Source of the DNA: a virus
Lineage: Duplodnaviria; Heunggongvirae; Uroviricota; Caudoviricetes
Reading direction: 5' to 3' (one strand)
Virus record (IMG/VR): IMGVR_UViG_2728369592_000010
Span: 1-38,452 of that record
Length of the DNA stretch: 38,452 bases
Positions within the stretch are counted from its first letter, which is position 1; each line of letters starts with the position of its first letter. Below are positions 5,491 to 32,778 of this stretch, piece after piece. The translations under genes and the position numbers were made by a program. A model generated the notes under the pieces. The model made no database searches, was not told the DNA's origin, and saw only the letters and a list, made by a program, of their open reading frames with translations.

Positions 5491-5507
5491 ATTACCTTTC
5501 AGGTAAT
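5491..5507. promoter_or_regulatory. Operator-like palindrome ATTACCTTTCAGGTAAT (TTACC-N5-GGTAA family)
   Basis: Perfect inverted repeat; identical core to the site at 22435-22449. Confidence 0.6.
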
Positions 5508-20154: not shown

Positions 20155-20447
20155 TCCTGTTCACTGGCCTCTTTGGCCATCTTCAAATACTGTTCAGGGC
20201 AATGCGCCATAACGCGCTGAAACAGTTCCAGCGCCAGATTGCGTTGCCCCTCATTAAATGCCATTGCCATAGCATCCATCGGAGAGATAGCGGAAAACAC
20301 CCGGCCTTTCTCCAGCACAGACCAGACAACGCGACGCCCATGTTCACTGCTCATGACAAAGCGAATGTCATCAATTTCACGCTGTGCCATGTCACGTTGC
20401 TTACGGGCGTTTTCTTCTTTCAGTTGATCGTCTTCGTAATCTGTCAT
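20151..20447 (-). CDS. Small head-assembly protein, unknown function
   Basis: 98-aa ORF overlapping portal stop and scaffold start. Confidence 0.6.
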   Translation of the reverse strand: MTDYEDDQLKEENARKQRDMAQREIDDIRFVMSSEHGRRVVWSVLEKGRVFSAISPMDAMAMAFNEGQRNLALELFQRVMAHCPEQYLKMAKEASEQE

Positions 20448-22123
20448 TGTGATTGCCCACCCTGACCACTAACTACATTCGCCATAGCTGACAAAACACT
20501 CGGATCCGAAGTTTTAGCTTCGCTTAGCGTTTTGGCACCCTGTGCCGCCGCCATCCCCATCGCCATCATTTGTTGCTGCTGTTGCTGCTGTGCCCGTTGC
20601 TGGCGAGCCTGCTCAACCTGTTCCTGCGGAACAATGACGGTTGGAGACACTCCGGACATATCAGCGAATGCATCGATCGCCTGATCAACGTTGAGTTTGT
20701 CGAGAGCTTCTGGTTTCGCTTGCGCAAGTTGACCAATGAAGTTAACCGTGGACGCCAGACTGGACAGGCCGATAGACTTCTGCGCCTGAGCCATGACGGA
20801 AATGTATTCGACCTTCAGGGGCATACCTTCCATCGCGTCAGGCGGTGGCGGCAGCATGTTTTTACGCACCATCATCGAGAAAGCGCGGTCAATGAGAGGG
20901 TTAAGACATTCGTCGTTCAGACGCTCCAGAACCGGCCCCAACATCAGAAGCTTTTCTTCTTTCATTTCGATCACTGCTTCAACAGGCATCGAGCGGGTAT
21001 TGATGTTCTGCAACATCATGAACAGATCGACAAAGTAGGCGCTGTTAATGATTTGGCGGGTGTCCTGAATGTCTGCTACCAGATCTGCTGTACTGGGGTT
21101 AACCAGATAAGCAGGCCTGAAACCATCCTGACCAGTAATCTGATCGATATACGTGATGTCGCCAGGAAGAAGAGAGGCGCGCTGATTCTTGAGGGAAGTC
21201 GGAGCAACCATCGGCGGATTGGTGGCTTTATCAATCAACTGCGACTTGCGCTGCTGGAGAAGCTGCAATGCCTTAACAGGTCCAAGCGCCAGCATACCCG
21301 GGCATGATGATCCATAAACATCTTCGCCGTTAACTTCCCAGCGCGGAGCCATAATTGGAAACTCATCGAATCCGGACTCACGCAACAACTTGTCGTTATC
21401 GCCGCCAACCTCGTAATAAACCGATTTGAATGGCTTGTTCTTGCTATCCAGCTTCGATGTATCGCGGTCAATGTTCGGGTAAACCGAATGCATAACTTCA
21501 ATCCACTTCTCGTAGGTGCCGCTTTCCCACATGCTTTTTACGGATTCGCTGACGTTATTTAGCCCGAACTCCTGAACAAGCTGACGAACAGTCATAGAGA
21601 ACTTGCGAAAACAGGTGTCCACACTGCCACGAGGTGAGTTAGCCAGGTAGTAACTGCCTATCGGGAATGGCATTGTGCGAATGATGTCCTCGTCATCCTC
21701 CAGCACCGCCATTGCACCAGTGCTGTATGTACCGAGGCTTCCGTATAACTGCGGCAGCGACTGGTAGAGATTCGACTTATTGAACATATCGTTCATACGG
21801 TTCTGCACCGCCTCAAGCCACAACTTAACAGGTCCATAATCCATCATTTCAGGATCTGGCGTAGCCAGGCGAAACCACGGACGCGCTGGGCTTGTGATGC
21901 CTGACATCATGCCGCTGGCGAGAGTGCGCGCCGCCATAGTCCCGGTCGAATCAATAATGCGTGTATTGCGTCGATCGTTACGGTTGACCTCAGAAGTCAG
22001 AAAGCGGGAACCACGCGGGTTGATGTAATCACTCAACTCGCGCCAGTGCGGCTCGAACGACTGACGCTCGCTTTCAAGTTGTGCGAACTGTTTGTTCAAT
22101 CGCTCTTTAGTTGTTTCCGCCAT
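20444..22123 (-). CDS. Portal protein
   Basis: 559-aa ORF in portal position between terminase and scaffold/capsid genes. Confidence 0.85.
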   Translation of the reverse strand: MAETTKERLNKQFAQLESERQSFEPHWRELSDYINPRGSRFLTSEVNRNDRRNTRIIDSTGTMAARTLASGMMSGITSPARPWFRLATPDPEMMDYGPVKLWLEAVQNRMNDMFNKSNLYQSLPQLYGSLGTYSTGAMAVLEDDEDIIRTMPFPIGSYYLANSPRGSVDTCFRKFSMTVRQLVQEFGLNNVSESVKSMWESGTYEKWIEVMHSVYPNIDRDTSKLDSKNKPFKSVYYEVGGDNDKLLRESGFDEFPIMAPRWEVNGEDVYGSSCPGMLALGPVKALQLLQQRKSQLIDKATNPPMVAPTSLKNQRASLLPGDITYIDQITGQDGFRPAYLVNPSTADLVADIQDTRQIINSAYFVDLFMMLQNINTRSMPVEAVIEMKEEKLLMLGPVLERLNDECLNPLIDRAFSMMVRKNMLPPPPDAMEGMPLKVEYISVMAQAQKSIGLSSLASTVNFIGQLAQAKPEALDKLNVDQAIDAFADMSGVSPTVIVPQEQVEQARQQRAQQQQQQQMMAMGMAAAQGAKTLSEAKTSDPSVLSAMANVVSGQGGQSQ

Positions 22124-22137
22124 TTCAATGACTCCGG

Positions 22138-22344
22138 TTACTGACCAAGCAGCGTTTTACCGCTGGTATTAGCGGTTGATGTGTCGCCCTGAGAACCGGT
22201 AAGCAGCGTAGAACTACGACCAGCAGCAGCGCGACGGCGACGTGTTTCTTCGTCGCGGGCATCAACAACGGCGGCATCCTGCTCCTGTGGTGCTGCCTGA
22301 ACTTCTGGTGTTGCAGGCACTGATGGTGAGCTACCCATGCACAT
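22138..22344 (-). CDS. Possible small protein immediately upstream of portal
   Basis: 68-aa ORF with SD GGAG; low-complexity sequence, so weak. Confidence 0.3.
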   Translation of the reverse strand: MCMGSSPSVPATPEVQAAPQEQDAAVVDARDEETRRRRAAAGRSSTLLTGSQGDTSTANTSGKTLLGQ

Positions 22345-22412
22345 ATCAATGACTCCGTACGCAATTAAATTATTACCAATTTAACCACATATGATTTATT
22401 TATCGTAGACAG

Positions 22413-22450
22413 TTGACATTTAACGCACGAATTATTACCTTTCAGGTAAC
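22413..22450 (+). promoter_or_regulatory. Candidate promoter (-35 TTGACA at 22413-22418) overlapped by operator-like palindrome ATTACCTTTCAGGTAAC (22434-22450)
   Basis: Consensus -35 hexamer on the plus strand about 350 nt upstream of the tRNA; operator covers the expected -10/+1 region. Confidence 0.45.
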
Positions 22451-22771
22451 CAAAGAGTTCATTCCGGTTACTAACCTGACTGGCTTGTCGTTAAATTGAA
22501 CAGGTGGAGTGAGCTTTTATTTTGAGCAGTACGGCGTATGGCACATGCGCCGATAGCGGTCTGGATACGTTTAAGGGGCACCCTCCCTTGCTCGGGCAAA
22601 CGAACCAGGTAGCCGGAATGTGCAAGTCGAGCGGTTTTATTCCGCGCACGGGGATTCACCATCCCGGCGATTCGGTGTGACGCCTCGGAAGAGACGAGGG
22701 TACAACGATGAGAGCATTTATGGAGCCGCGACAAAGTGTGGCGCCTTAACAGGCTAAGTGCTCTCAGCGTT

Positions 22772-22848
22772 GTGGCATTAGCTCAGTTGGACAGAGCAAC
22801 CGCCTTCTAAGCGGTTGGTCGCAGGTTCGAATCCTGCATGCCACGCCA
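22772..22848 (+). tRNA. tRNA-Arg (anticodon UCU, reads AGA), phage-encoded, with encoded CCA
   Basis: Manually folded cloverleaf: acceptor GTGGCAT/ATGCCAC, D-stem GCTC/GAGC, anticodon stem ACCGC/GCGGT with loop CTTCTAA (TCT at 22806-22808), T-arm GCAGG-TTCGAAT-CCTGC, discriminator G, CCA; similar to but distinct from host argU as I recall it. Confidence 0.85.
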
Positions 22849-22893
22849 GAATCACACCTGAGGACCGTGATGCCAGAAGTTCCAGGGGCTTGG

Positions 22894-22935
22894 CGGTGAT
22901 GGTTTCCCTTGAAGGACTACCACCGCCCTTTTTAC
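22894..22935 (+). terminator. Hairpin GGCGGTG...CACCGCC followed by CTTTTT (first terminator after tRNA)
   Basis: 7-bp GC-rich stem with a long structured loop and a T-run. Confidence 0.45.
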
Positions 22936-23011
22936 AGCAGGACGCCATTGCGATGACTTCATGCTGTAAACCAGTACAGCCACGGAAGGCGGAACTCATT
23001 GCTTCCAGTTC

Positions 23012-23036
23012 GCCCGGTTCGTCCGGGCATTTTTTT
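23012..23036 (+). terminator. Rho-independent terminator GCCCGG-ttcgt-CCGGGC-TTTTTTT
   Basis: Textbook GC stem plus T7 run, ending 6 nt before the downstream ORF. Confidence 0.75.
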
Positions 23037-23041
23037 GCCTG

Positions 23042-23920
23042 ATGACCACAAATTACCTTAAAGGTATAATCATGAAAAACTTTAAGGTAATTAGTATGTT
23101 CGAATCGTTCAAAGAGCTGTTTTTATCTACTGCCAATACTGCCGTGCATCGAGCTAAAAACCCTGTGCTTGGTGCTTTTGTTATGTCCTGGTGCGCCTTC
23201 AACTGGAAATCACTTCTTTATCTATTTTTTAGCAAATCAAATATAATAGATAAAATTTCATACATCTCAGATAACAGCACATGGAAAACTGTTATGTTTT
23301 ATCCATGCTTATCTGTAATTACTATCTGCTGCCTATTACCATGGGTAAACAATATCATTAACGTATGGCAAGCAAAGCCTCTTGATAATAATGACTCAAT
23401 CGAAAATCACCGGAAGGCAAGAAAAATACAACGTGAAACACGGCTACAGAGATTGCTGGCTAAAAAAGACATTACTTACGAAAAAGTAAAAACAGGCGCT
23501 GAAAAAAACATTCAAGACATGAAAGAGGAAATAATTCTTTCAAAAGACAGAATGGGACAACTCACATCTGAATTGAAAGAGAGGGAGACAGAACTGCGCG
23601 CAGAACAAGCTCGTATTTTAGAATTATCTAAGGTTATTGATGAAACAACATCTAAACTAGAAAATCTAGAAAAAGCTCACAAAAATTTAAAAAACGAATA
23701 TGAGTCCTATAAGAAAAACATTCCTTTGGCAACAAATAATACAATTGCTAATGGGCTTGTAGGTCTAAAATCATTACAAGACCTTAATGAGTCCGTAAAG
23801 AAACTTGGCGTTACTGGAATTAACAATCCAGAAATCAATACATTATTGAATAATCCTCTAGTAAATATAAATGGTGGTTTAAATTCCACCTATCAAAGAA
23901 AATTAAAAACACAAAAGTAA
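23042..23920 (+). CDS. AT-rich moron: membrane-anchored coiled-coil protein of unknown function (candidate exclusion/abortive-infection effector); probable start at ATG 23096
   Basis: Clearly AT-rich relative to flanks (by eye about 35% vs about 50% GC); opposite strand to terminase and portal; own -10 TATAAT at 23065-23070 overlapped by near-operator TTACCTTAAAGGTAT (23053-23067); two N-terminal TM helices then about 120-aa coiled coil; uses AGA/AGG Arg codons. Confidence 0.75.
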   Translation: MTTNYLKGIIMKNFKVISMFESFKELFLSTANTAVHRAKNPVLGAFVMSWCAFNWKSLLYLFFSKSNIIDKISYISDNSTWKTVMFYPCLSVITICCLLPWVNNIINVWQAKPLDNNDSIENHRKARKIQRETRLQRLLAKKDITYEKVKTGAEKNIQDMKEEIILSKDRMGQLTSELKERETELRAEQARILELSKVIDETTSKLENLEKAHKNLKNEYESYKKNIPLATNNTIANGLVGLKSLQDLNESVKKLGVTGINNPEINTLLNNPLVNINGGLNSTYQRKLKTQK

Positions 23921-23923
23921 AAA

Positions 23924-25393
23924 TCATTCAAATGGGTCATAGTCTGTTATAGCCCTGCCCTGCTGCTGCCGTGGGTCATTAGTTTTCTTGGCTACCGGGA
24001 AAGCAAACGTCAGCAGTAGCGCATCGCCTTTACCCGGCGAACGCCCAAGCCGCTCTTTGATATCTTCCTTCGGTTCGATAACGATTTTACCGTCCACACG
24101 AACTTTGTACTCTGCCGCCGACAGGTCATCCGCTGTTTCCTGGTCATCCAGCATCCCGCCGAGCCTCAGCCATGTCTTGCATGAGTTGAACATCTCCCCG
24201 CGCTTATTGAGCATCTGCGGGTCAGTAGACGCGCCGCCGAACGGAACAAGTTGCCATGTACGACCCCAGCCGTCACCGATTGACTTCAGACCGGTACCGT
24301 AACCGAAGTCGATGAACACCGCGTCAGCCTGATACTGGTCTTCAAAGTCAGCGATACGCTTTGCCATAATCAGATCGTCAGTGGTCTTGTTGCCGGTCCA
24401 CAGCACCTTACTGTGCAGCCCCTGCCGCAGGTATATCACCGCGTCATCAACGCCTGAGTATGCCGGGTCAACGCCGATTATCACCGGAGCATGTGCAACC
24501 TGCGCAGCGGTGACCACCCGTTTCATTGCCTCGTCAGTAAGTCCGGTAGGGATAAACTGCAATTCAGATGCATCCGGGAATATGCCGCGCACACGGATTT
24601 TAACGAAGTCGCTGTCTTCCCCGTAGTCATCAACCCATTTCTGCAACTGCTGTTTGTTAGTGCCTTCCACCGTCCGGCTGTCAATCTGCGCAGTTTTCCA
24701 GCGGTGTTTATATTTGCGGAAACATTCGCGGAAACGCCCGGTGTTACGTGTAGGGTTTCCGAACGCCACCCAGATAATCTCAGTGTCTTCGTCCGTTAGC
24801 GCCCCCTCAGCAACTTCCCACACCAGATCCGCAATGTTCGACGCTTCATCGAATACCACGATGATGCGTTTGCGCTCGTTGTGTAGTCCGGCGAATGCCT
24901 CAGTGTTGTGCTCAGACCAGGGGATTGCGTCAGCTCGCCACCGCTTGTCGTGCCCAGGATCATTGCTGTACATCGCGGTAGCGGTACAGGTAAACCAGTC
25001 TTTCGTGATAGCAAGGTTCGACCACTTGATAATTTCCGGCCAGGTCTTCGTTCGTAGCTGGTTGTCGGTGTTGGCGGTCACCACGACCTTACAATCCTCG
25101 CAAGTGGACATGCCCCAGTTGATCAGCATTGAGATGAATGCGGATTTACCAATACCGTGACCAGAAGCGCGTGCCAGCATAAGCGGCTGATAGCGCGTCT
25201 CTGGATTCTGCAGGTGATCACGTATCTCTCGGAACGCATCAGCCTGCCACTGACGTGGGCCGGTAGCATGTGCCAGTTCAGTCCCCTCTTCCCCCCACGG
25301 GAACGCATAGAGGGCATAGCCAAGCGGATCGTGAGTGAACCCTGCAATATCCTCGATCAACTGCTCTTCAGGAGATAACGCTGTATCTGTCAC
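23924..25393 (-). CDS. Terminase large subunit
   Basis: 489 aa; N-terminal ATPase features and C-terminal nuclease region; ATGA overlap with small-subunit stop. Confidence 0.9.
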   Translation of the reverse strand: MTDTALSPEEQLIEDIAGFTHDPLGYALYAFPWGEEGTELAHATGPRQWQADAFREIRDHLQNPETRYQPLMLARASGHGIGKSAFISMLINWGMSTCEDCKVVVTANTDNQLRTKTWPEIIKWSNLAITKDWFTCTATAMYSNDPGHDKRWRADAIPWSEHNTEAFAGLHNERKRIIVVFDEASNIADLVWEVAEGALTDEDTEIIWVAFGNPTRNTGRFRECFRKYKHRWKTAQIDSRTVEGTNKQQLQKWVDDYGEDSDFVKIRVRGIFPDASELQFIPTGLTDEAMKRVVTAAQVAHAPVIIGVDPAYSGVDDAVIYLRQGLHSKVLWTGNKTTDDLIMAKRIADFEDQYQADAVFIDFGYGTGLKSIGDGWGRTWQLVPFGGASTDPQMLNKRGEMFNSCKTWLRLGGMLDDQETADDLSAAEYKVRVDGKIVIEPKEDIKERLGRSPGKGDALLLTFAFPVAKKTNDPRQQQGRAITDYDPFE

Positions 25394-25986
25394 TGATTAC
25401 CATCCTGACGTTCTTTGAGTCGCTTCCTGGCTGCTGCTATGCGATCAGCAATTGTCACATTCACATTAACATCCAGACGTTCTTTGAACGCGTTGACATC
25501 AACATGCTTACCAATCAGCTCAAGGTTCTTCACCTTGTCAGGCCATTTAATTTTTTTGAGGATTGTCTCTATCGAATCCTCGTTCATGTTCATGATGGTC
25601 GATGACAGATCAAAGCCACTAAGCGTAGTGCGCCAGATTTTCGGCCACTCACGGATTGGTTTAAGGCTCCCATCGTCGTTGAGGATGTCGATCACGTCCA
25701 TCTGGTCGATCTCCACCAGGCGCATGAGAACGTAATCAGCACTGACGCGCATTCGTTTGTTGCGCTCCTCCATCAACTCGGCAATCCGTTTTTGAATGCG
25801 TTCATCGCGCATCATGACACTGGCTTTAACTGCCGCTGTATTTGGGGAGAATCCTGCGTTAATCGCTGCCTGAGTCTGGTTTTCAGGCGTTTTGATGTAT
25901 GACTGGCAATAAGCCTCCTGCATTGCTGTTAGTGGCTTAAATTGCGTTGATTTGCGTTTATAGGTTTTAGGTTCAGCAGGCATCAT
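25390..25986 (-). CDS. Terminase small subunit (start set at MMPAEP; ORF-track start at 26064 adds a low-complexity extension without SD)
   Basis: Motif AAINAGFSPNTAAVKASVMMRDERIQKRIAE is typical of small terminase DNA-binding domains; GGTGG before the internal ATGs. Confidence 0.75.
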   Translation of the reverse strand: MMPAEPKTYKRKSTQFKPLTAMQEAYCQSYIKTPENQTQAAINAGFSPNTAAVKASVMMRDERIQKRIAELMEERNKRMRVSADYVLMRLVEIDQMDVIDILNDDGSLKPIREWPKIWRTTLSGFDLSSTIMNMNEDSIETILKKIKWPDKVKNLELIGKHVDVNAFKERLDVNVNVTIADRIAAARKRLKERQDGNQ

Positions 25987-25993
25987 AACCACC

Positions 25994-26025
25994 GTGGTAA
26001 TAGTTACCGTTGTGGTAATAGTACC
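25994..26025. repeat. Two direct copies of an everted GGTAA/TTACC element (GTGGTAATAGTTACC and GTGGTAATAGTACC) upstream of the terminase small subunit
   Basis: Read directly; half-sites are the same as the operator family but in everted arrangement with 3-bp spacer. Confidence 0.4.
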
Positions 26026-26096
26026 ATGCAAAATAAAGCCGCCATAGTTGGCGGCAGTATTCAAAACCCATCAAATTCATCATGCATAATCTACTC

Positions 26097-29596: not shown

Positions 29597-29673
29597 TTAC
29601 CCCTTAGGTAATTAAAAACCACATAAGACACGAAATCAATAGATTTTAGAATATTTTATTACCTCAAAGGTAA
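29597..29673 (-). promoter_or_regulatory. Promoter-operator cassette: operator TTACCTCAAAGGTAA (29659-29673), -35 TTGATT (29634-29639, minus), 17-bp spacer, -10 TTTAAT, operator TTACCCCTTAGGTAA (29597-29611) overlapping -10/+1 and the SD
   Basis: Same geometry as the plus-strand cassette at 32702-32778. Confidence 0.6.
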
Positions 29674-31941: not shown

Positions 31942-32004
31942 TCACCCATAAGGTAACAAAAATCAAGGATAGTTACCTATGGGGTGCATTTACCTGTTGG
32001 GTAA
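31942..32004. promoter_or_regulatory. Tripartite operator cluster between Cro-like and repressor genes: TCACCCATAAGGTAA (31942-31956), TTACCTATGGGGTGC (31973-31987), TTACCTGTTGGGTAA (31990-32004)
   Basis: Three TTACC-N5-GGTAA-family sites in the 154-bp divergent intergenic region. Confidence 0.6.
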
Positions 32005-32059: not shown

Positions 32060-32644
32060 ATGAAAAGTATCCAGGACGTCCGCAGGCAAAATCTCAACGA
32101 CTTGATCGACCGTGAATTCAATGGTGTTCAGACGCGGATGGCAGAAAAACTTGGAACTCAGGCAAATCTGGTAAACCGCTGGGCTCTTGGCAAGAAGGTT
32201 ATCGGCGACCAGGTTGCGCGAAAAATTGAAGCTGCCGCCAATAAACCCCGTAACTGGCTTGATATCGATCGCTCGCTTTCTCAGGAAGGTTTTCAGCCTG
32301 TCGGCCCAAGCGACATTGGTCAGCTAGCGGCTCACAACCTGGAACGCTGGATGAGCGAAAGCCGCGACCTTTCAACACAGGGAAAACTTCACCGCGCATC
32401 CGGCGTCGCCCAGGTGACAATCAGCCGCCTGTTAAACAATGAGGTCAGCGTTTCCATTTCCACCCTGGAGAATGTTGCATCCGCATTCGGGCGTCACGGA
32501 TATGAACTACTGATTCACCCGCACGACCCTGCGACTATCAACTATGACCGCTCACGCTACGCATTGTTACCCGAAACCGAGAAAGCAAAGATCGAAAGTT
32601 ACATTGAATTTGTCATCAACCAGAACGAAAAAAGCAAACAATAA
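32060..32644 (+). CDS. Immunity repressor candidate with two tandem XRE-type HTH domains and no recognisable S24 autocleavage domain
   Basis: HTH-like segments at about residues 20-65 and 110-150; no Ala-Gly cleavage site or Ser/Lys peptidase motifs seen; divergent from the Cro-like gene. Confidence 0.7.
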   Translation: MKSIQDVRRQNLNDLIDREFNGVQTRMAEKLGTQANLVNRWALGKKVIGDQVARKIEAAANKPRNWLDIDRSLSQEGFQPVGPSDIGQLAAHNLERWMSESRDLSTQGKLHRASGVAQVTISRLLNNEVSVSISTLENVASAFGRHGYELLIHPHDPATINYDRSRYALLPETEKAKIESYIEFVINQNEKSKQ

Positions 32645-32701: not shown

Positions 32702-32778
32702 TTACCTTACGGGTAATTTTTTTAACTCATATCTATTGACACCAAACCAAATAAGCATAATTATTACCCCAACGGTAA
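32702..32778 (+). promoter_or_regulatory. Early-left promoter-operator cassette: operator TTACCTTACGGGTAA (32702-32716), -35 TTGACA (32736-32741), 17-bp spacer, -10 AATTAT, operator TTACCCCAACGGTAA (32764-32778)
   Basis: Read directly; geometry mirrors the minus-strand cassette at 29597-29673. Confidence 0.6.

Follow-up and report, generated by a model that had tools for sequence, protein, structure and literature searches.

The window analysed here, 38,452 nucleotides (nt) of virus DNA (Caudoviricetes; IMG/VR record IMGVR_UViG_2728369592_000010), is on its sequence a prophage of the phiV10 type (Uetakevirus). Between its portal and terminase genes lies an island of 1.58 kb, positions 22345–23923, that is read from the opposite strand and comprises a promoter, a non-coding leader, a tRNA gene, two terminators and an AT-rich gene, here called the passenger gene (Table 1). 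The most novel component of this block is an RNA within the leader, which we call X. X is a real structured RNA, conserved and with extensive base-pair covariation. It is widespread and unannotated, and neither X nor the passenger family is described in the literature that we searched on put-like RNAs, on phiV10 and epsilon15, on transcription of P1 ban and on defence in Uetakevirus.

The non-coding stretch runs for ∼324 nt from a predicted transcription start at ∼22448 to the tRNA and has a G+C content of 0.55–0.59; positions 22528–22776 belong to the X family. X consists of a core of 178 nt followed by a 3′ hairpin of 77 nt, giving at least five helices in ∼250 nt, and the base of the 3′ hairpin overlaps the first 5 nt of the tRNA. 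The structure was derived from 16 diverse sequences in an independent MAFFT alignment, where 97% of the cells can pair compared to 31–47% with slid partners, and nine pairs show compensatory changes. On four of five measures at most one in 500 shuffles reached the observed values; the count of further pair types was not above that in the shuffles. A covariance model (R1) recovered 45 sequence clusters. The resulting alignment was fitted to the model and is thus biased towards the structure; within it 98.2% of the cells pair (28–43% in the slid controls), 12 of the 23 pairs are compensatory (103 cells) and none of 500 shuffles matches these values. The two alignments agree, and the stem of the 3′ hairpin is kept with different sequences in other members of the family.

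X contains G–U pairs, for example an invariant U–G in P2, that would be C–A on the minus strand. Therefore, the plus strand is the functional strand, and a minus-strand function of X was ruled out by these pairs together with the consistent orientation. Among the 132 distinct X sequences, nearly all have the 14-nt sequence CCGGAAUGUGCAAG without change, and the loop GGCACAUG hardly varies. A pseudoknot is possible; a stem S2 (CACC with GGUG), which may partner S1, shows compensatory changes in one lineage only. RNAalifold proposed an alternative long-range helix (GCACAU with AUGUGC), which conflicts with P1; its bases are invariant, so covariation argues neither way, and the pairing may be an alternative or a tertiary contact. 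A coding role was also rejected, as short open reading frames (ORFs) across X are not conserved and the 24-codon frame of the window meets a stop in mEp460. A search of positions 21500–24500 against Rfam 15 (E ≤ 1) gave no hits apart from the tRNA and a match antisense to it that is due to chance, leaving X without an Rfam match.

We found the X core in 1840 of 5426 complete Escherichia coli genomes (about one third), at 2471 places. We take the 554 copies on plasmids to be mostly P1-like. Among the matches listed, the annotation at X was ‘none’ in 12 rows out of 12. Positions 22531–22778 of the window match unannotated lambdoid DNA at ∼83% identity (mEp460, cdtI, 2H10, Ayreon, Stx2c and some Stx2a phages), P1, P7, D6, SJ46 and RCS47 at ∼80%, and phages of Salmonella, Klebsiella and Enterobacter at 70–77%. 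X is unannotated even in the densely annotated P1 record. According to a note in the mEp460 annotation, UTI89 may carry X as well.

The position of X relative to promoters, repressor genes and terminators recurs across these groups. In the Uetakeviruses, X follows an operator-overlapped island promoter, and in the window it begins ∼80 nt after the predicted start. In the lambdoid mEp460, X begins ∼35 nt after the predicted start of PL, with the operators TTGCATATCTCGCAA and TTGCATAATGCGCAA just upstream; no N gene is annotated in this phage and the first ORF downstream of X does not resemble N. In diverse prophages X lies 97–265 nt downstream of CI/LexA-type repressor genes, on the same strand. 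In the ban operon of P1 (locus L010, 1998–2181) and P7 (L005, 2498–2680), which C1 controls, X is found between trnI and ban, at 14 nt from trnI. In lambdoid phages and P1 the direction of X is always that of early transcription. A strong hairpin with a U-tract follows 220–330 nt downstream of X in 94 of 102 distinct loci. In lambdoid phages this hairpin is homologous to the first island terminator (T1), the two sharing their ends (GGCGGU...ACCGCY CUUUUUACA). X is conserved where the tRNA is absent (lambdoids, Tyrion and PAT1), and directly abuts tRNAs in two unrelated phage groups. A second copy, analogous to putR, was sought in the window, mEp460 and other loci and was not found; there is one copy per phage. 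In the lambdoids the first gene after X and its terminator is often a conserved ORF (∼120 amino acids at full length, motif ...EDTTETPMYVNRGG...; for example L004 3069–3431, L171 9423–9815 and L223 7244–7477), which does not resemble an arginine-rich protein of the N type.

The first-pass annotation of this DNA had listed an operator-overlapped promoter, a leader of ∼320 nt, a tRNA-Arg(UCU), two terminators and an AT-rich gene with its own −10 and a convergent end, and all of these were found as described. It had also taken terminase and portal genes to be normally adjacent and the island to be cargo that splits them. Comparison with genomes of the epsilon15/phiV10 type showed that the two genes are not normally adjacent in Uetakevirus and that the split is not special to this genome. 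A plus-strand block of 0.9–1.9 kb lies between gp3/portal and the gene for the terminase large subunit (terL) in all eight relatives examined (phiV10, epsilon15, EC.W1-9, SPN9TCW, Tyrion, PAT1, ST512-KPC3phi13.3 and BUCT711). Since the block was found in every Uetakevirus examined, the sequences place the split of terminase and portal as ancestral rather than a recent insertion, and the block as the conserved plus-strand accessory operon of the genus. Its left 0.7 kb (promoter, leader, tRNA and terminators) is 98% identical to phiV10, and window positions 22100–23036 as a whole are ∼98% identical to phiV10 and close Uetakevirus relatives. A chromosomal prophage of E. coli PCN033 matches the complete island with 100% identity, and at least 80% of the island is present in 18 of the 5426 complete E. 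coli genomes. The annotation had further named the island as the likeliest site of an undescribed function; within it, the leader RNA, rather than the protein gene, is what stands out most.

Variation among the relatives is confined to the last gene of the block, and the contents of this slot differ between phages that are otherwise 98% identical. In phiV10 and epsilon15 the slot is occupied by a Pfam Phage_gp49_66 gene, in the Klebsiella phage ST512-KPC3phi13.3 by a gene whose product has a Tad2-like (Thoeris anti-defence) domain (E = 4.2e-26; L134 2011–2532), and in Tyrion by three small ORFs, one of them DUF551. The occupants in SPN9TCW and PAT1 have no family match. A gene of the phrog_4780 family fills the slot in the window, BUCT711, EC.W1-9 and many E. 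coli prophages. The last gene is thus a genuine exchangeable passenger and the block a built-in accessory slot. In phiV10, ST512 and epsilon15 the passenger ATG lies 13–17 nt after the U-tract of the second terminator (T2), preceded only by a ribosome-binding site; the Tad2-like gene, directly after the U-tract, has no promoter of its own. Because there is no space for a promoter after T2, the passenger genes of these three phages are reachable only by read-through from the island promoter.

Both promoters of the island overlap operators or operator-like sites. A site homologous to TTACCTTTCAGGTAA, the palindrome that contains the −10 of the sigma-70 island promoter, is annotated as repressor-binding (operator) in epsilon15, and the promoter/operator architecture is the same in epsilon15 and ST512. 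Allowing one mismatch, the pattern TTACC-N5-GGTAA occurs at 11 sites in the window against 0.73 expected, a number reached by none of 100 shuffles. Such sites flank a gene for a 194-residue helix-turn-helix repressor (32060..32644); others occupy the promoters of terS and the tailspike gene as well as both island promoters. The second island site, TTACCTTAAAGGTAT, is invariant together with the passenger promoter and gene in six different contexts, among them a Klebsiella prophage of a different kind and, in Atlantibacter, the decayed remnant of a prophage beside guaA. Since both promoters overlap repressor operators, they are predicted to be silent in the lysogen and active early on derepression, by infection or induction, unlike those of a classic moron. 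The scattered operators resemble the dispersed regulon of the P1 repressor C1, and each exchangeable module would bring an operator-promoter of its own. As in the C1 regulon (for example at the ban operon), many separate units across the genome have an operator on their promoter. Neither the repressor nor the operators are related in sequence to those of P1, and the virions are of different types. Outside the island, the operator-like palindromes of the window are at 5492–5506, 25986–26018, 29597–29673, 31942–32004 and 32702–32778. One operator is fused to the −10 of the promoter of the AT-rich tailspike gene, the same design as at the island promoters.

Between a repressor-controlled early promoter and the terminators that precede promoterless genes, no conserved element other than X is present. 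The reading that we favour, although we regard it as an even call, is that of a repressor-controlled early accessory operon in which X acts in cis and the passenger can be swapped. The prophage repressor would keep the unit shut, and infection or induction would fire it. X, transcribed first, would act in cis on the transcribing RNA polymerase in the manner of the HK022 put RNAs, so that polymerase could read through T1 and T2 into the passenger gene, which may also be served by the second, operator-overlapped promoter. A cut by RNase P, at 22771/22772, would separate X from the tRNA, which would then decode AGA codons.

That X is a put-like cis-acting antiterminator is argued by analogy, and we place this proposal slightly short of even. 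The putL and putR RNAs of HK022 act in cis and make E. coli RNA polymerase resistant to terminators. They are ∼70 nt long with two stem-loops; G35 is essential in HK022 put and U28 contacts the β′ zinc-binding domain. HK022 putL, and a feature of HK639 annotated as a ‘putL-like antiterminator RNA’, occupy the same position as X, at the start of the early transcript and upstream of terminators. The HK639 feature is annotated as a single copy, as X is one per phage, and X likewise lies in phages that have no annotated N gene, ahead of genes with no other promoter. In addition, the motif ACGGCG...CAUGCGYCG is shared by hairpin P1 of X and stem I of put. The HK639 genome, the immunity region of HK022 and the window each contain it a single time, always at these elements, against 0.00–0.01 occurrences expected, and it includes a U that matches U28 of put.

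Several observations weigh against the cis-acting reading or its put-like form. The shared motif is bipartite, covers 15 nt and was noticed post hoc. No relationship between X and put was detected by blastn (word size 7, HK022 immunity region), by covariance model R1 (HK022 and HK639) or by nhmmer (5′ half of X), and we therefore do not claim membership of the put family. The equivalent of the essential G35 is A, U or C in X, and X has three to four times the size of put (∼250 nt and at least five helices, against ∼70 nt and two stem-loops); it differs further in its possible pseudoknot, its different conserved core and its presence in the P1 ban operon and in podoviruses. The P1-type loci have no terminator within 700 nt downstream of X. 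Epsilon15, although a viable phage that has a passenger gene behind T2, has lost the tRNA and most of X, and X is therefore not essential. As for control by the repressor, we infer repression at either promoter from the position of the sites only, and the operator of the passenger gene, which has one mismatch, persists in a prophage where no other site of this kind is seen.

In lambda, nutL together with N provides protein-dependent processive antitermination. X has the same map position as nutL, just downstream of PL, and CGCUCUUUUUACAA, which follows the lambdoid terminator hairpin, may resemble the boxA consensus. In contrast to lambda, no N-like gene is annotated or obvious near X, and no boxB-type hairpin was identified.

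The sequence at the epsilon15 deletion suggests how X was lost there. The deletion junction (L002 4044–4133 against window 22528–22930) lies in the UUCCCUUGA loop motif, which is common to the P2 apex of X (PAT1 type) and the loop of T1, suggesting recombination between two similar UUCCCUUGA loops.

The passenger gene bears on the question of whether the island is instead a classic moron. Its G+C content is 0.337, compared to ∼0.52–0.55 in the neighbours, and the last base of its stop codon is 23920, at a distance of 3 nt from the stop codon of terL (23924–23926). The presence of the gene, its own promoter and this convergent end had all been described correctly in the first pass, whereas the start needed correction. 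We assign it, from the sequence, to the ATG at 23096 rather than 23042 or 23072, because all 35 aligned homologues begin with MLES or MFES, the −10 ends only 2 nt before the ATG at 23072, and the phrog_4780 profile starts at residue 19. The profile covers residues 19–292 of the 292-residue ORF, which is the entire 274-residue protein. The 187 homologues are all unnamed. Median identity to 33 homologues is 69% over residues 1–160 and 14% over residues 161–274.

There is a strong hydrophobic segment at residues 66–84 (hydropathy 2.0) and a weak one at 27–45 (1.2), with a basic stretch next. The AlphaFold2 model is all-helical, with a predicted local distance difference test score of 68 and a predicted template modelling score of 0.26 overall; a long helix at residues ∼140–200 exceeds 90 on the former score. 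This model and the hydrophobic segments point to a cytoplasmic coiled-coil protein anchored in the inner membrane; a role in membrane-level exclusion or host takeover early in infection would be a guess. No significant match was obtained in Pfam, PADLOC, NCBIfam, the PDB sequence profiles or Foldseek (AlphaFold2 model against PDB and BFVD). The best match in PADLOC-DB 2.0 was LmuB (E = 7.9e-5), which involves only the coiled-coil stretch and is low-complexity noise.

The gene is also found outside the Uetakevirus slot. Over the first 1212 bases of the island, many E. coli prophages are ∼95.6% identical to it and then diverge, the break falling inside the passenger gene; the commonest E. coli homologue (P0111) is in the same slot. 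An unrelated Klebsiella prophage carries a homologue on the strand opposite to its neighbours. The decayed Atlantibacter prophage next to guaA (L144/L145, 5737–7882), whose terminase is truncated to 365 amino acids and from which X and the tRNA have gone, retains an intact homologue with promoter and palindrome. These data suit an accessory gene that is mobile and whose variable end faces a partner that varies as well.

The first-pass annotation had read this layout as a moron or defence cassette. On this view the AT-rich gene would be expressed from its own promoter in the lysogen and protect the host, for example by superinfection exclusion or abortive infection at the membrane, with the upstream RNA unrelated. 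We consider this unlikely. The foreign base composition, the gene's own promoter, its presence/absence polymorphism, and the movement of gene and promoter between prophage types, intact even in the Atlantibacter remnant, all speak for it, and a conserved membrane domain with a hypervariable C-terminus is the pattern of a protein that meets variable phage partners. What holds of the first-pass reading is that the last gene is an AT-rich, exchangeable passenger. Expression in the lysogen is predicted to be absent, as both promoters overlap operators, and the palindrome over the spacer and −10 of the passenger promoter is invariant with the gene. A defence function, in turn, is not borne out by any match to a known defence family, nor was there a significant PADLOC, Pfam, NCBIfam, PDB or fold match of another kind; some other slot occupants are promoterless, and that of the Klebsiella relative has a Tad2-like anti-defence domain.

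Comparison with known morons and accessory hot spots, such as lambda bor and lom, HK97 gp15 and the P2/P4 defence hot spots, gives a similar picture. They share with the island a fixed slot and exchangeable genes of foreign composition, and the passenger of the window has its own promoter. They differ in that both island promoters overlap operators, that no plus-strand terminator follows the gene (which also weighs against the moron reading), and that some slot passengers are promoterless and dependent on read-through, at least one being related to an anti-defence protein.

Less likely still, in our estimate, is that X is an early non-coding RNA that stands alone and acts in trans, for instance by serving as decoy to a defence factor or host protein. 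T1 and T2 would then simply end an X–tRNA gene, and passengers would receive only leaky read-through. X would be freed by RNase P at the 5′ end of the tRNA in the window, and by tRNA 3′ processing in P1. The order promoter–X–(tRNA)–terminator does resemble an RNA gene, the adjacency to tRNAs in two unrelated phage groups would suit such processing, and the near-invariance of CCGGAAUGUGCAAG suggests a specific binding partner. The P1-type loci that lack a nearby terminator and the survival of epsilon15 without X also fit. However, the promoterless passengers and the whole leftward early operon of the lambdoids without an annotated N gene would be left behind their terminators with no route of expression.

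The remaining explanation, very improbable in our view, is that the leader is merely a tRNA precursor or RNase III processing region without a function of its own, or that the minus (late) strand is the functional one; an RNase III site is annotated nearby in epsilon15 and both strands of the leader fold better than shuffled sequence, but it is largely refuted by the covariation and context, namely the compensatory changes, the G–U pairs that would become C–A, the conservation of X without a tRNA in lambdoids, Tyrion and PAT1, and its constant early direction in lambdoids and P1.

We tentatively suggest, with rather less than even confidence, that X represents an undescribed class of phage regulatory RNA. 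One possibility is that it binds polymerase as a large antiterminator with at most a distant relationship to put; the other is that it acts early and in trans by neutralising a host factor. X stands at the head of the early operon in Uetakeviruses and in lambdoids without an annotated N gene (some Stx phages among them), and within the ban operon in P1-like plasmid prophages, and roughly one in three complete E. coli genomes has it.

Control of read-through by X, if confirmed, would account for the activation of the leftward early operon in a large group of lambdoid prophages without an annotated N gene, including some Stx2 phages, and for the expression of exchangeable accessory genes in Uetakeviruses. 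RNA-only antitermination would then extend from a few HK022-like phages to elements in a third of E. coli genomes, P1 included. The accessory slot is probably early-lytic rather than lysogenic, which alters how its passengers (the Tad2-like domain, gp49_66 and the membrane coiled-coil protein) should be studied. The covariance model of X will also be useful to annotators for a region that is now blank or covered by spurious ORFs.

The tRNA has an ordinary explanation, the supply of decoding for the rare AGA codon. Of the arginine codons, 4 of 11 in the passenger gene are AGA, as are 9 of 28 in the tailspike gene, which is also AT-rich; AGA is absent from portal, terL, terS and gp3. Phage-borne tRNA-Arg(UCU) genes occur next to the stx genes of Stx phages. 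The likeness is that of a rare-codon tRNA on a temperate coliphage with AGA concentrated in AT-rich accessory genes; the difference is that the tRNA of the window is fused to a structured leader RNA in an operator-controlled unit.

Table 1. Positions of the island features and flanking genes in the window
Feature	Position	Strand	Description
Portal gene	20444..22123	−	Pfam Head-tail_con, E = 2.7e-187
gp3-like small ORF	22138..22344	−	68 amino acids; portal-side flank, outside the island; phrog_831, E = 2.4e-36
Island early promoter (predicted)	22413..22449	+	−35 TTGACA 22413–22418, 17-nt spacer, −10 TACCTT 22436–22441; read from the sequence
Operator TTACCTTTCAGGTAA	22435–22449	palindrome	Contains the −10 of the island promoter
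5′ leader segment before X	22450..22527	+	Shared with epsilon15, where it is partly annotated as an RNase III site; aligned by eye to L002 3950–4049
X core	22528..22705	+	Hairpin P1, long-range helix P2 enclosing a variable hairpin, conserved CCGGAAUGUGCAAG, variable P3, hairpin S1, P5 with GAAGAGA loop; covariance model R1 186.9 bits
X 3′ long hairpin	22700..22776	+	CAACGAUGAGAGCA...UGCUCUCAGCGUUG; 77 nt; fold −37.5 kcal/mol, z = −5.5
tRNA-Arg	22772..22848	+	Anticodon UCU, CCA encoded; ARAGORN; Rfam tRNA 73.3 bits against a gathering score of 29
Terminator T1	22892..22933	+	Hairpin 22892–22927, GGCGGUGAUGG...CUACCACCGCC, then CUUUUU
Terminator T2	23012..23036	+	Hairpin 23012–23028, GCCCGGUUCGUCCGGGC, then AUUUUUUU
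Passenger promoter (predicted)	23042..23070	+	ATGACC, 17 nt, TATAAT; transcription start predicted at ∼23077
Operator-like palindrome TTACCTTAAAGGTAT	23053–23067		Over the spacer and −10 of the passenger promoter
Passenger gene	23096..23920	+	274 amino acids; phrog_4780, E = 2.7e-121; conserved N-terminal ∼160 residues, then hypervariable coiled coil
terL, terminase large subunit	23924..25393	−	Flank, convergent with the passenger gene; annotated so in phiV10, epsilon15 and EC.W1-9

On the minus strand the order of genes is terS (25390..26064), terL, the island, the gp3-like ORF and portal; the gp3-like ORF is homologous to epsilon15p03 and PhiV10p06. The listed terS ORF starts from a TTG at 26064. 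Operators and sequence context favour the ATG at 25986 (MMPAEPKTY...), immediately before which there are two operator-like sites.

Some copies of X carry an insert of ∼95 nt in the 3′ hairpin, as in SPN9TCW (L006 ∼2530–2640) and in L008 and L009 (∼2190–2290). The insert contains the T-arm-like strings GGTTCAATTCC and GTTCGATTC, and ARAGORN calls no tRNA there. Antisense ‘hypothetical protein’ ORFs, annotated or merely callable, overlie X or the tRNA/terminator region: PhiV10p04 (L001 3179–3430), an ORF at L003 3186–3437, mEp460_037 (L004 2443–2811) and window 22778–22999(−). These are probably spurious.

Just downstream of terL, inside the 3′ end of the passenger gene, there is a minus-strand terminator-like hairpin with a T-run at 23873–23890. 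The late transcript must cross the entire island in antisense to reach gp3 and portal, unless there is a separate promoter near 22345–22410.

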